30,886 nucleotides of DNA from Escherichia coli (GCF_003334765.1 NZ_QOWT01000042.1); one strand, 5' to 3'; shown: positions 11,246 to 22,250, counted from the stretch's first letter. Notes: generated from the sequence alone by a model not told the origin. Translations and numbers: made by a program.

Positions 11246-11913
11246 AATAAAGAAAACCTTTTAACGCCAAAACAAAAAAAGTATTTCGTCGCGTAGTGTA
11301 AGCGATCACTTATTATATTTCCACAAAATTTAATCTATTTACAGTCCTGCGCGAGATTATTTCAGCTGTTATTTTCTGAAACTCTCAGAATAATTTCAAG
11401 ATTATATATTAGCCATTTTGATGAGTAATTTAGATTATTGGTGAACAGAGCGGCGCTCTCTGCTCGCTAATTCCGCAAGCCTGACAAAATCAAAGTGAAT
11501 AAAAATGCAATATAACAGAATAAAAGAAAACATCCATCACTGGTGCTTTCTGCTGTTAATGTACATTGTCTGGCATAAAAAATGCTGAAAATGACCCAGC
11601 TACTACATACACCGAATTCTCTACGCTTATAGCGTTACCTCACCCCCAAACTTTCATTAGTGATATTAAAGGTAAGGCCATATCTAATTGATTTAATTAA
11701 AAATAAATCATATCGGCATGTAAAAATCCACAATGTACAAAAAACGAGCCGTTACGGAATATTTTATCTACAAAAACTGACTAAATAAAAATTTTTCACT
11801 AATTGATTAGTCATAGCCAGCGATATACGCTATGCGAAAATGCAGATGGCAATGAGATCCACTGCTTTCATCTCCATTAACATCCCATTACGCTTTTATT
11901 AAGGAGCATTAGC

Positions 11914-12363
11914 ATGTTCTCACCGCAGTCACGCTTGCGTCATGCAGTTGCAGATACGTTCGCGATGGTTGTTTACTGTTCTGTCGTGAACATGTGTATT
12001 GAAGTTTTCCTCTCCGGAATGAGCTTCGAACAGTCTTTTTATTCCAGATTGGTAGCGATTCCGGTGAACATCTTAATTGCATGGCCATACGGTATGTACC
12101 GTGATCTGTTTATGCGCGCGGCACGCAAAGTTAGCCCGTCGGGCTGGATAAAAAATCTGGCGGATATCCTGGCTTATGTGACGTTCCAGTCACCGGTGTA
12201 TGTGGCGATCTTGTTAGTGGTGGGCGCAGACTGGCATCAGATTATGGCGGCGGTCAGTTCAAACATCGTTGTTTCGATGTTGATGGGGGCGGTTTATGGC
12301 TACTTCCTCGATTATTGCCGCCGACTGTTTAAAGTCAGCCGTTACCAGCAGGTAAAAGCCTGA
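11914..12363 (+). CDS. alaE: L-alanine exporter, small inner-membrane protein, 149 aa
   Basis: Track ORF with aaggag SD at 11901-11906; hydrophobic protein recognised as AlaE (YgaW). Confidence 0.85.
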
Positions 12364-17357: not shown

Positions 17358-17469
17358 GCTATCTTTGACAAAAAATATCAACTTTCTCGATTTGCTCTCA
17401 GCCCTTATATCACGGGAAATTCCGGCGATTTGCTCGCATCAATATTCATGCCACATTTGCCATCAGGGG

Positions 17470-17497
17470 TTGCCTCAGATTCTCAGTATGTTAGGGT
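17470..17497 (+). promoter_or_regulatory. proU P2 (sigma-70) osmoregulated promoter: -35 ttgcct (17470-17475), 16-bp spacer, -10 tagggt (17492-17497)
   Basis: Hexamers read directly; they match the proU P2 promoter as I recall it (non-canonical TAGGGT -10), roughly 60-70 nt upstream of the proV ATG. Confidence 0.7.
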
Positions 17498-17564
17498 AGA
17501 AAAAAGTGACTATTTCCATTGGGTAATATATCGACATAGACAAATAAAGGAATCTTTCTATTGC

Positions 17565-18767
17565 ATGGCAATTAAATTAGAAATTAAAAATCTTTATAAA
17601 ATATTTGGCGAGCATCCACAGCGAGCGTTCAAATATATCGAACAAGGACTTTCAAAAGAACAAATTCTGGAAAAAACTGGGCTATCGCTTGGCGTAAAAG
17701 ACGCCAGTCTGGCCATTGAAGAAGGCGAGATATTTGTCATCATGGGATTATCCGGCTCGGGTAAATCCACAATGGTACGCCTTCTCAATCGCCTGATTGA
17801 ACCCACCCGCGGGCAAGTGCTGATTGATGGTGTGGATATTGCCAAAATATCCGACGCCGAACTCCGTGAGGTGCGCAGAAAAAAGATTGCGATGGTCTTC
17901 CAGTCCTTTGCCTTAATGCCGCATATGACCGTGCTGGACAATACTGCGTTCGGTATGGAATTGGCCGGAATTAATGCCGAAGAACGCCGGGAAAAAGCCC
18001 TTGATGCACTGCGTCAGGTCGGGCTGGAAAATTATGCCCACAGCTACCCGGATGAACTCTCTGGCGGGATGCGTCAACGTGTGGGATTAGCCCGCGCGTT
18101 AGCGATTAATCCGGATATATTATTAATGGACGAAGCCTTCTCGGCGCTCGATCCATTAATTCGCACCGAGATGCAGGATGAGCTGGTAAAATTACAGGCG
18201 AAACATCAGCGCACCATTGTCTTTATTTCCCACGATCTTGATGAAGCCATGCGTATTGGCGACCGAATTGCCATTATGCAAAATGGTGAAGTGGTACAGG
18301 TCGGCACACCGGATGAAATTCTCAATAATCCGGCGAATGATTATGTCCGTACCTTCTTCCGTGGCGTTGATATTAGTCAGGTATTCAGTGCGAAAGATAT
18401 TGCCCGCCGGACACCGAATGGCTTAATTCGTAAAACCCCTGGCTTCGGCCCACGTTCGGCACTGAAATTATTGCAGGATGAAGATCGCGAATATGGCTAC
18501 GTTATCGAACGCGGTAATAAGTTTGTCGGCGCAGTCTCCATCGATTCGCTTAAAACCGCGTTAACGCAGCAGCAAGGTCTTGATGCGGCGCTGATTGATG
18601 CGCCGTTAGCAGTCGATGCACAAACGCCTCTTAGCGAGTTGCTCTCTCATGTCGGACAGGCACCCTGTGCGGTGCCCGTGGTCGACGAGGACCAACAGTA
18701 TGTCGGCATCATTTCGAAAGGAATGCTGCTGCGCGCTTTAGATCGTGAGGGGGTAAATAATGGCTGA
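17565..18767 (+). CDS. proV: Glycine betaine/proline ABC transporter ATP-binding subunit, 400 aa
   Basis: Track ORF 17292..18767 trimmed to ATG 17565 ([22 protein letters not shown]...); Walker [10 protein letters not shown]; C-terminal tandem CBS-like region. Confidence 0.93.
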
Positions 18768-20883: not shown

Positions 20884-20964
20884 GGGCGGATAAGGCGTTT
20901 TTGCCGCATCCGCCGTTCTGTGCACAATGCCTGATGCGACGCTGGCGCGTCTTATCATGCCTAC
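20884..20964. repeat. REP/BIME pair downstream of proX
   Basis: gggcggataaggcgtttttgccgcatccgcc (20884-20913) and gcctgatgcgacgctggcgcgtcttatcatgcctac (20929-20964) are typical REP palindromes. Confidence 0.65.
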
Positions 20965-21065: not shown

Positions 21066-22250
21066 ATGACTAAACCTAATCATGAGCTTAGCCCGGCGCT
21101 GATCGTGCTGATGTCTATCGCCACCGGTCTGGCGGTAGCCAGTAACTATTACGCCCAGCCATTGCTCGACACCATCGCGCGTAACTTTTCCCTTTCCGCC
21201 AGTTCGGCAGGCTTTATTGTTACCGCCGCGCAGTTGGGCTATGCCGCAGGTCTACTGTTTCTTGTTCCCCTCGGTGATATGTTTGAACGCCGCCGCCTGA
21301 TTGTCTCGATGACCTTACTGGCGGCATGCGGCATGTTGATTACCGCCAGCAGTCAGTCGCTGGCGATGATGATCCTCGGTACGGCATTAACCGGTTTATT
21401 CTCAGTCGTGGCACAAATTCTGGTTCCGCTGGCAGCGACGCTGGCTTCACCGGATAAACGCGGCAAAGTGGTTGGCACTATTATGAGCGGTCTGCTGTTG
21501 GGGATCTTGCTGGCACGGACAGTTGCCGGATTGCTGGCGAATCTCGGCGGCTGGCGCACCGTCTTTTGGGTTGCTTCGGTGTTAATGGCACTGATGGCGC
21601 TGGCATTATGGCGTGGTCTGCCACAAATGAAATCAGAAACCCACCTCAACTACCCACAGTTGTTGGGTTCCGTTTTCAGTATGTTTATCAGCGATAAAAT
21701 TCTGCGTACCCGCGCGTTGCTGGGCTGCCTGACCTTTGCCAATTTCAGCATTCTCTGGACCTCAATGGCCTTTTTGCTTGCCGCTCCACCTTTTAACTAC
21801 AGCGATGGTGTCATTGGTCTGTTTGGACTTGCGGGAGCTGCCGGAGCGTTGGGCGCTCGTCCGGCGGGCGGTTTTGCCGATAAGGGCAAATCGCACCACA
21901 CCACAACTTTCGGTCTGCTGCTGCTATTACTTTCATGGCTGGCGATCTGGTTTGGTCACACTTCCGTACTGGCGTTGATTATCGGAATCCTGGTGCTGGA
22001 TCTCACCGTGCAGGGCGTGCATATCACTAACCAGACGGTAATTTATCGGATACATCCTGATGCGCGCAATCGCCTGACCGCAGGTTACATGACTAGCTAC
22101 TTTATTGGCGGTGCCGCCGGTTCGCTAATTTCAGCCTCAGCCTGGCAACATGGCGGTTGGGCTGGCGTTTGTCTGGCTGGCGCGACGATTGCCCTGGTTA
22201 ACTTACTGGTCTGGTGGCGAGGTTTTCATCGTCAGGAAGCCGCAAATTAA
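21066..22250 (+). CDS. ygaY: Major-facilitator-superfamily transporter, 394 aa, intact
   Basis: Uninterrupted track ORF with MFS-like hydrophobic profile; position between proX and ygaZ corresponds to ygaY. Confidence 0.8.
   Translation: MTKPNHELSPALIVLMSIATGLAVASNYYAQPLLDTIARNFSLSASSAGFIVTAAQLGYAAGLLFLVPLGDMFERRRLIVSMTLLAACGMLITASSQSLAMMILGTALTGLFSVVAQILVPLAATLASPDKRGKVVGTIMSGLLLGILLARTVAGLLANLGGWRTVFWVASVLMALMALALWRGLPQMKSETHLNYPQLLGSVFSMFISDKILRTRALLGCLTFANFSILWTSMAFLLAAPPFNYSDGVIGLFGLAGAAGALGARPAGGFADKGKSHHTTTFGLLLLLLSWLAIWFGHTSVLALIIGILVLDLTVQGVHITNQTVIYRIHPDARNRLTAGYMTSYFIGGAAGSLISASAWQHGGWAGVCLAGATIALVNLLVWWRGFHRQEAAN

Follow-up and report, generated by a model that had tools for sequence, protein, structure and literature searches.

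The long AT-rich spacer between stpA and alaE of Escherichia coli as a probable divergent control region

The stpA–alaE locus and its spacer

The window considered here is a stretch of 30,886 nucleotides of Escherichia coli DNA (NZ_QOWT01000042.1), which from base 75 on shows 99.96% identity with MG1655 (K-12-like E. coli); around the locus of interest, window positions correspond to genome positions minus 2,787,250. Two genes stand back to back in this window, stpA (10841–11245, minus strand, 134 aa) and alaE (11914–12363, plus strand, 149 aa). An earlier note, drawn up from the bare sequence, had designated the 668 bp separating them as the longest intergenic region of the window, strongly AT-rich and with many A/T tracts. 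Indeed, no other gap between annotated features is as long, the next ones being those between nrdF and proV (approx. 353 bp) and between ygaQ and glaH (approx. 335 bp), and no other 668-bp stretch of the window has so low a GC content (33.8% versus 51.1% for the window as a whole). A/T tracts of at least four bases number 22, versus 11.0 ± 2.9 in 2000 composition-matched shuffles, none of which reached 22, and those of at least five bases number 9, versus 3.7 ± 1.8. The spacer is thus twice as rich in A/T tracts as expected, an observation beyond chance, and the description given in the earlier note stands.

Of 5426 complete E. coli genomes, 5420 contain the spacer, in one copy each, and across these 5420 genomes no annotated feature lies on it except IS1 insertions. 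These insertions occur in two natural isolates, in one of which both genes are annotated as intact. For a repeat or mobile element (REP, MITE or IS remnant), several copies per genome were looked for, and the spacer and the GC-rich island that it contains each proved single-copy in about 5420 genomes.

Beyond E. coli, AlaE was used as bait and yielded 80 loci from other species. A divergent stpA/alaE pair with an AT-rich spacer of 475–789 bp occurs in more than 20 genera, including Escherichia, Citrobacter, Salmonella, Enterobacter, Lelliottia, Leclercia, Klebsiella, Raoultella, Yokenella, Trabulsiella and others, and the GC content of the spacer is well under the local value at every divergent stpA/alaE locus surveyed. 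Because it is present in all surveyed genera possessing the pair, the long AT-rich spacer is a property of the gene pair rather than an accident of K-12. Inside Escherichia, its length is confined to 661–669 bp, with hardly any indels. The alignment divides it into three parts, namely a conserved block on the stpA side, an unconserved middle and a conserved module on the alaE side (table 1).

Table 1. Features of the stpA–alaE spacer, in window positions (approximate limits are marked ~).
Feature	Position	Strand	Length	Description or basis
stpA–alaE divergent intergenic control region	11246–11913		668 bp	33.8% GC
stpA-proximal block	11246 to ~11330		85 bp	93–99% identity within Escherichia; recognisable across genera
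stpA 5' leader	11246–11306	−	61 nt	published start site to start codon
Candidate SdsR pairing site GCGTTAAAAG	11258–11267	−		−22 to −13 from the stpA start codon; homology to Salmonella only
Hexamer pair TGGAAA (11323–11318), 17 bp, TACACT (11300–11295)	11295–11323	−		conservation, 28 aligned species
stpA −10 hexamer TATAAT, without a good −35	11312–11317	−		published promoter, sequence checked
AT-rich middle	11331–11680		~350 bp	no sequence constraint; composition and approximate length kept
GC-rich near-palindrome AGAGCGGCGCTCT	11447–11459			inside a GC-rich island, ~11440–11485
alaE module	~11684–11913	+	~235 bp	conserved in 37 Enterobacteriaceae species
Distal blocks of the alaE module: TTGAT 11689–11692, A-run 11722–11725, CAAAAAAC near 11740	11684–11756	+		conservation
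Lrp-like site, family consensus CAGAGTATTTTATCGAC	11755–11773	+		centre ~−72 from the inferred alaE start; conservation
A/T block AAATAAAAATTT	11783–11794	+		~−55 to −44; conservation
Inferred alaE core promoter: −35 TTGATT (11803–11808), 17-bp spacer, −10 TACGCT (11826–11831)	11803–11831	+		conservation
Inferred alaE leader	11838–11913	+	~76 nt	Shine–Dalgarno AGGAG at 11902–11906
Upstream open reading frame (uORF)	11840–11902	+	20 codons	ends at the TAA of TAAGGAG, just before the alaE Shine–Dalgarno

Promoters and protein binding on either side

On the stpA side, a study combining in vitro run-off transcription with RNA-seq placed the transcription start at genome position 2,798,556, downstream of a perfect sigma70-like −10 hexamer, a position said there to match Thomason et al. 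and RegulonDB (PMC10301672). According to the same study, this promoter is silent in the wild type and active once hns is deleted, as well as in vitro with E-sigma70 alone (PMC10301672). Once its coordinates were checked on the sequence, the published start was found to correspond to window position 11306, and the stpA leader therefore measures 61 nt. This leader is kept in Escherichia, Citrobacter and Salmonella, and its folding is ordinary (z = −1.4).

A second pair of hexamers, TGGAAA-17-TACACT, overlaps the mapped stpA promoter and start site and is conserved more widely across genera: T11323, T11300, A11299 and T11295 are each identical in 28/28 aligned species and G11321 in 27/28. This pair may represent an additional or an ancestral promoter of stpA, or else a conserved element of the leader; as the promoter of stpA in E. 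coli it was dropped, the published start being 11306 with TATAAT. Enterobacter and Klebsiella have no such TATAAT. At stpA, the most conserved hexamer pair is not the mapped promoter, and comparative logic has been misleading once at this locus.

The stpA leader could also be a target for a small RNA. In Salmonella, a reporter fusion of stpA begins at −83 (versus −61 in the E. coli start-site mapping), and the sRNA SdsR protects positions −22 to −13 of the stpA mRNA (PMC5137417). The sequence GCGTTAAAAGG is common to the E. coli and Salmonella leaders in our alignment, and SdsR probably pairs with the E. coli stpA leader at the site listed in table 1.

On the alaE side, the core of the module is near-invariant in the 37 species aligned, including genera in which stpA is not the upstream neighbour. 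Because it is conserved even where stpA is absent upstream, the module belongs to alaE. Its most constrained positions outline a promoter: the TTG at 11803–11805 is found in 37/37 species, as are T11826, A11827, C11830 and T11831 (TAnnCT). From this pattern, we infer that alaE is transcribed from TTGATT-17-TACGCT, with a start near 11838 and a leader of approximately 76 nt, at the end of which the Shine–Dalgarno AGGAG is itself invariant (37/37). Upstream of the core, nine positions of the A/T block are kept in 35–37 of the 37 species (A11784–A11789 and A11791 in 37/37, A11783 in 36/37, A11790 in 35/37), and this block would act either as an UP-like element or as an Lrp contact. The columns of the Lrp-like site are retained in 29–36 of the 37 species, and its family consensus shows a 12/15 match to the Lrp SELEX consensus YAGHAWATTWTDCTR. 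Further out, the distal blocks (T11689 in 36/37, G11690 in 35/37, A11722 in 36/37), which are also kept in genera without an upstream stpA, are candidates for additional Lrp contacts reaching to about −150. Upstream of alaE, Ihara et al. (2017) reportedly located the binding of Lrp between −161 and −83. Counted from the ATG, if that is the reference, these figures translate to 11753–11831 and would coincide with the conserved Lrp-like block.

Two short repeats were seen in the spacer: CTAATTGATT has copies at 11684 and 11799, and two 23-nt segments (11484/11770) are 78% identical; the second copies of both fall in the alaE core or in its upstream elements. They could mark recurring protein contacts, but a short repeat in two copies is weak evidence in DNA this rich in A and T.

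The purely computational best matches of Shimada et al. lie at other positions, namely GTGATA-17-TCTAAT for alaE (11660–11688, with a leader of approx. 220 nt) and TTTACA-17-TTTAAT for the leftward, stpA-directed promoter (11724–11696) (PMC3946193). Our own promoter scan returned five promoter-like sites versus 3.8 expected and missed both the stpA promoter, because it lacks a −35, and the inferred alaE promoter, because its −10 is weak.

Protein binding at the locus is documented by published experiments. By genomic SELEX, the spacer is a type-A divergent spacer that binds the RpoD holoenzyme in vitro and contains H-NS sites (PMC3946193). ChIP-seq of Lrp gave a double peak, one part over the promoter region and the other inside ygaP, more than 1 kb off; removal of the ygaP peak caused a more than fivefold loss of the Lrp activation of stpA (PMC10127797). 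In the same work, in which Lrp-dependent expression was measured by lacZ fusions and qRT-PCR in lrp mutants, alaE was mildly repressed by Lrp in minimal medium and strongly activated by it in the presence of Leu/Ile/Val, and atomic force microscopy revealed that Lrp bridges the stpA–alaE fragment and that leucine abolishes this bridging (PMC10127797). Activation of alaE by Lrp is likewise obtained with L-Ala or L-Leu (PMC6801825), and the Lrp dependence and H-NS silencing of stpA have been summarised with its physiology (PMC4668568).

Consensus scans were less telling. The Lrp consensus gave three matches with three mismatches in the spacer (11386, 11769–11783 and 11818–11832), its total over the window (43 versus 40.9 expected) being that of chance. 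For the high-affinity H-NS motif tCGATAAATT, the spacer held a single match with two mismatches (11761–11770), and the 44 matches of the window (34.7 expected) were not enriched in it. Because such scans run close to chance across the window, individual Lrp and H-NS sites could not be placed by sequence; and because only one two-mismatch motif match was found, H-NS binding in the spacer looks driven by composition. The H-NS motif is not obligatory for H-NS binding. StpA is reported in older literature to bind at its own promoter.

Taken with their published counterparts, these data agree with what the earlier note had proposed for this DNA: the stpA promoter lies in it on the minus strand (published start 11306), an alaE promoter very probably does so on the plus strand to judge by the TTG-17-TAnnCT pattern of all 37 species, and H-NS binds it. 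Lrp also acts on it, as attested by the ChIP peak, the bridging and the regulation of both genes (PMC10127797). The spacer displays the low GC content and A-tract richness of the H-NS/StpA-silenced class, and it has the layout of a divergent sigma70 promoter region, the start being published for stpA and deduced from conservation for alaE.

The variable middle and the search for a hidden gene

Between these two conserved flanks, the middle shares 58% identity with that of E. albertii, a value within the range of the four-fold sites of six neighbouring genes (49–76%; 56–76% for the flanking genes), whereas the neighbouring intergenic regions reach 88–95%. Among E. coli strains, its identity is 89–99%, versus approximately 99% for the coding flanks; in 19 other species its GC content is 31–50%, and across genera its length ranges from 155 to 469 bp. 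The middle thus appears to drift roughly as fast as neutral DNA, yet its AT-richness is kept, and the extra length of the spacer would consist of this sequence-unconstrained, AT-rich DNA. A previous reading of ours, based on third codon positions, according to which the middle evolves faster than neutral, was withdrawn once four-fold sites gave an approximately neutral rate. The GC-rich island around AGAGCGGCGCTCT was present as a single copy per genome in 5419 genomes, and a mobile-element origin was rejected on this ground. The near-palindrome is kept in E. coli strains (with one base differing in an O157:H7 strain) and diverged in other Escherichia lineages and genera, so that the island appears restricted to E. 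coli and the lineages nearest to it.

We consider it very likely that the spacer as a whole is a divergent transcriptional control region and not a gene, consisting of two independent promoter modules with AT-rich filler between them, and we propose that the middle serves as a platform for a nucleoprotein complex of H-NS, StpA and Lrp. The alternative that fares best grants the middle no function at all: it would be neutral filler, AT-rich by mutation bias, on which H-NS and Lrp bind incidentally, and only the flanking modules (approx. 85 and 235 bp) would matter. The identity of the middle with E. albertii, like that of four-fold sites, its variation in length between genera and the IS1 insertions in two natural isolates all speak for this view, and neutral drift under AT-biased mutation would yield the same middle. 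However, a spacer of 475–789 bp persists in every genus with the gene pair despite the deletion bias of bacteria, the Escherichia length is held within narrow limits and almost free of indels despite approximately 40% substitutions, A/T tracts are twice as numerous as composition predicts, and long-range Lrp bridging demonstrably affects stpA (PMC10127797). Persistence, rarity of indels and A-tract excess count mildly against functionless filler, which we regard as unlikely.

A more speculative view, in which we place little confidence, is that the middle is kept for its physical properties (AT-richness, A-tracts and length) and not for its sequence. It would then form a nucleoprotein spacer or insulator, by which stpA and alaE could be set independently through filaments of H-NS/StpA and through Lrp bridges that respond to leucine. 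If this were true, the fast drift of the middle would lead to differing stpA set-points among E. coli lineages, and possibly to lineage-specific, H-NS-silenced cryptic transcripts such as a K-12 minus-strand hairpin RNA at 11690–11577.

The length of the spacer had also led the earlier note to suggest that it leaves room for long 5' UTRs, an unannotated sRNA or a small protein, while stating that neither a known sRNA nor a convincing ORF with a ribosome-binding site could be seen in it. The second statement holds, and the suggestion is not supported. Searched against Rfam at the gathering threshold, the spacer gave no match, and a permissive search gave best E-values of 0.2–9 with bit scores far under threshold; the MG1655 annotation places no ncRNA in it, though micA is annotated elsewhere in the window. 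Adams et al. (2021) tabulated 3' ends from Term-seq together with their Rho dependence; these tables, like the annotation, are blind to transcripts silenced by H-NS under laboratory conditions, and in them no 3' end falls within genome positions 2,798,496–2,799,163, that is, inside 11246–11913, the nearest ones being located inside stpA and downstream of alaE.

The only segment reminiscent of an sRNA gene lies on the minus strand. In a sliding fold scan of K-12, 11580–11679 was the best of 50 folding windows with z = −3.1, which is borderline for the best of 50; the 121 nt from 11690 to 11570 fold at −33.7 kcal/mol (z = −2.7, 0/200 shuffles as good) and include the sole terminator-like site of the spacer, a hairpin at 11600–11584 followed by a U-run to 11577. 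A conserved sRNA at 11690–11577 was rejected, its long stem and its terminator stem both being broken by SNPs in O157:H7, phylogroup B2 and CH10508, with a covariation term of zero. What could be maintained is an unannotated sRNA that is silenced by H-NS or restricted to some lineages, running from about 11690 to the hairpin and U-run, and for which the leftward promoter of Shimada et al., directly upstream, could be invoked alongside the fold and the terminator-like end. Yet the TTTAAT hexamer of that promoter lacks the critical A at position 2, nowhere in the spacer is conservation lower than in the 11690–11570 region, its stems do not survive in other E. coli, and neither Rfam nor Term-seq records any such transcript; we therefore hold such an sRNA to be very improbable.

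As for small proteins, all ORFs of at least 20 codons in the spacer lose their start or gain a stop within E. coli or Escherichia, and none is conserved across relatives. The uORF preceding alaE is the only one of them that stays intact across E. coli strains. Escherichia sp. MOD1 and E. albertii carry it uninterrupted as well, and no equivalent was found in other genera in the alignment; three of the four sampled Escherichia lineages that are neither E. coli nor E. albertii carry an in-frame stop at codon 6. It has no Shine–Dalgarno, its ATG lies 2 nt from the inferred alaE start site, and it is probably fortuitous. A riboswitch or an attenuator in the leaders finds no more support. In the alaE leader, whose single-sequence fold is ordinary (z = −1.0), the alignment gave five invariant pairs around the Shine–Dalgarno and no covariation, and Term-seq shows no premature 3' ends in either leader. 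The long, structured, covarying leader and the premature termination expected of a riboswitch or attenuator were not found, the leaders measuring 61 nt (published start) for stpA and approximately 76 nt (inferred) for alaE. That the uORF is a translated leader peptide coupling ribosome behaviour to alaE expression appears very improbable: it keeps an equal length in E. albertii despite 78% nucleotide identity there, and its stop abuts the alaE Shine–Dalgarno, the TAA being the first part of TAAGGAG, but it is interrupted in other Escherichia, would start behind a 2-nt leader and lacks the series of Ala or Leu codons that marks classical attenuators, with neither a conserved leader structure nor a premature 3' end to accompany it. 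In any case, a hidden sRNA, a small protein and long UTRs in the spacer are not supported.

Proposed mechanism and comparison with known systems

As a control region with two promoter modules, the spacer could function as follows. The stpA promoter, a −10-only sigma70 promoter (TATAAT, 11317–11312) starting at 11306 according to published mapping, is intrinsically active and, in the wild type, silenced by H-NS bound to the AT-rich DNA upstream, as published work has shown. Lrp occupies this promoter and activates it in minimal medium, aided by the ygaP site through DNA bridging that leucine dissolves, which published work has likewise shown. The alaE promoter, with its weak hexamers TTGATT/TACGCT, would depend on the A/T block near −50 and on an array of Lrp sites from about −72 outwards, these assignments being our own; octameric Lrp, prevailing in the presence of leucine or alanine, would activate it, a regulation that is published and to which we tentatively assign the sites above. 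The middle would contribute composition and distance only, offering H-NS, StpA and Lrp a platform of low specificity and holding the two promoters approximately 530 bp apart.

The stpA–alaE control region and its regulators are already described, and the region is an ordinary, characterised divergent one. Free & Dorman in 1997, Sondén & Uhlin in 1996 and Ihara et al. in 2017 are all said to have described it. The locus treated by Shimada et al. (2014) and by Ziegler & Freddolino (2023) is identical to the present one, and nothing essential differs. For stpA–alaE itself, it has already been published that H-NS silences stpA, that Lrp activates stpA and induces alaE, and that Lrp gives a double peak and bridges the DNA. 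The locus already serves in the literature as a model of DNA bridging by Lrp and is a textbook example of how H-NS cross-regulates its paralogue, with little discovery value, and the extra length of its spacer is not to be mined for a hidden gene. The present analysis contributes the division into three parts by conservation, an inferred core promoter for alaE, and searches for an sRNA, a small ORF and an attenuator that came out negative. Defined by comparison through TTG-17-TAnnCT, the invariant block AAATAAAAA and an Lrp-like site, the alaE module offers precise bases to mutate. Since the middle appears neutral in rate yet stays AT-rich, it would also lend itself to a clean natural test of what proteins that silence or bridge DNA require, sequence or composition only.

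Several well-known regions of E. coli offer points of comparison. The csgD–csgBAC spacer (approx. 750 bp) is likewise long, AT-rich and divergent, with H-NS-silenced promoters of constitutive type and several regulators. The csgD gene has a leader of approximately 150 nt targeted by many sRNAs, and it receives about 20 transcription-factor inputs. Unlike csgD, stpA and alaE have short leaders, and the inputs known for them come chiefly from H-NS, StpA and Lrp. Both spacers appear in the same type-A table (PMC3946193).

Closer at hand, proU (proVWX) lies in the same window, with a promoter near 17400–17565 that is also AT-rich and curved, and at which high-affinity H-NS sites nucleate a repressive bridged filament. 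The H-NS consensus TCGATATATT has matches there at 17525 and 17632. In proU, the high-affinity H-NS motifs are defined and a further regulatory element lies downstream, in proV, whereas the stpA–alaE spacer has one match with two mismatches.

The multi-site Lrp promoters of ilvIH, dadAX and oppA resemble that of alaE, in that Lrp contacts extend over 100–250 bp upstream of a weak promoter. Leucine or alanine likewise modulates their response, and secondary peaks are found together with bridging; two of these systems, dadAX and oppA, were treated alongside stpA–alaE (PMC10127797). Two traits set the present locus apart from these systems. At alaE, leucine turns Lrp from a mild repressor into a strong activator, and the partner Lrp peak is situated across the whole stpA gene, inside ygaP.

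Sequence elements within the stpA–alaE spacer and elsewhere in the window

Two elements stand out in the 668-bp AT-rich region that separates the divergent stpA and alaE genes, and they are listed below together with the RNA elements detected elsewhere in the window. The first, a GC-rich island carrying the near-palindrome AGAGCGGCGCTCT, occurs in one copy only; it is retained across E. coli strains, with a one-base change in the O157:H7 strain, whereas its sequence has drifted apart both in E. albertii and among the cryptic Escherichia clades. This island could be a binding site for some regulator. The second is the direct repeat CTAATTGATT, whose downstream copy includes the putative −35 element of alaE and whose upstream copy shares bases with the distal conserved TTGAT block. 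Another pair, of 23 nt, at window positions 11484 and 11770, is 78% identical. In addition, tRNA-Arg genes lie at the window's right edge.

Positions in the window of the short spacer elements and of the RNA elements matched in Rfam
Feature	Position	Location	Source	Remarks
GC-rich island	~11440-11485	middle of the AT-rich spacer		contains near-palindrome at 11447-11459
Direct repeat	11684-11693 and 11799-11808			exact, 10 bp; two copies, 115 bp apart
naRNA4/REP-type element	20884-20961	directly after proX	Rfam
MicA	27559-27630	between luxS and gshA	Rfam	known sRNA

Transcript 3′ ends of stpA and alaE

In published Term-seq data (Adams et al. 2021, supplement), the principal stpA 3′ end lies antisense to the end of ygaP, at genome position 2,798,048 (window 10798), and a strong internal 3′ end is located at 2,798,243 (window 10993, − strand), approximately 250 nt into the open reading frame. 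On the other side of the spacer, a 3′ end downstream of alaE and antisense to ygaC is found at 2,799,705 (+ strand; window 12455), in a supplementary table which we took as reporting Rho-dependence (bicyclomycin). We read this position as the terminus of an alaE transcript extending into the convergent ygaC gene.

Variation of the region among natural isolates and related species

An IS1 element is inserted within the stpA–alaE spacer of two natural E. coli isolates (NZ_AP027759, at 1789-2486 of the compared locus, and NZ_CP172108, at 2898-3595). Both stpA and alaE are annotated as intact in one of these isolates; the other lacks the spacer's right half along with the 5′ end of alaE, a gene annotated there as a pseudogene. 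In Citrobacter amalonaticus, a GC-rich insertion of approximately 130 bp (~2870-2995 of the compared locus) separates the conserved alaE promoter from the Shine-Dalgarno sequence, and the alaE leader is thus longer in this species. This insertion may be a small repeat element.

In the four loci from E. albertii and the cryptic Escherichia clades (L002, L004, L005 and L008), the alignment to K-12 breaks down downstream of ygaM, the ygaM–nrdH spacer and nrdHIE displaying only 36-52% identity, which suggests that gene content differs there or that an insertion is present.

Relationship of the window to MG1655

Compared with MG1655, the initial 74 bases of the window (1-74), located inside the ygaQ pseudogene, are non-MG1655 sequence; they resemble a terminal sequence of IS5 (reverse complement GGAAGGTGCGAATAAGCGGGG...). 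Hence, the window derives from a K-12-like strain distinct from MG1655 and carrying a putative IS5 in ygaQ. The ygaY pseudogene (21066-22243) also differs from its MG1655 counterpart, by 7 bp in length and by four mismatches downstream of ~21300, so that the offset between window and MG1655 coordinates changes by 7 beyond that point.
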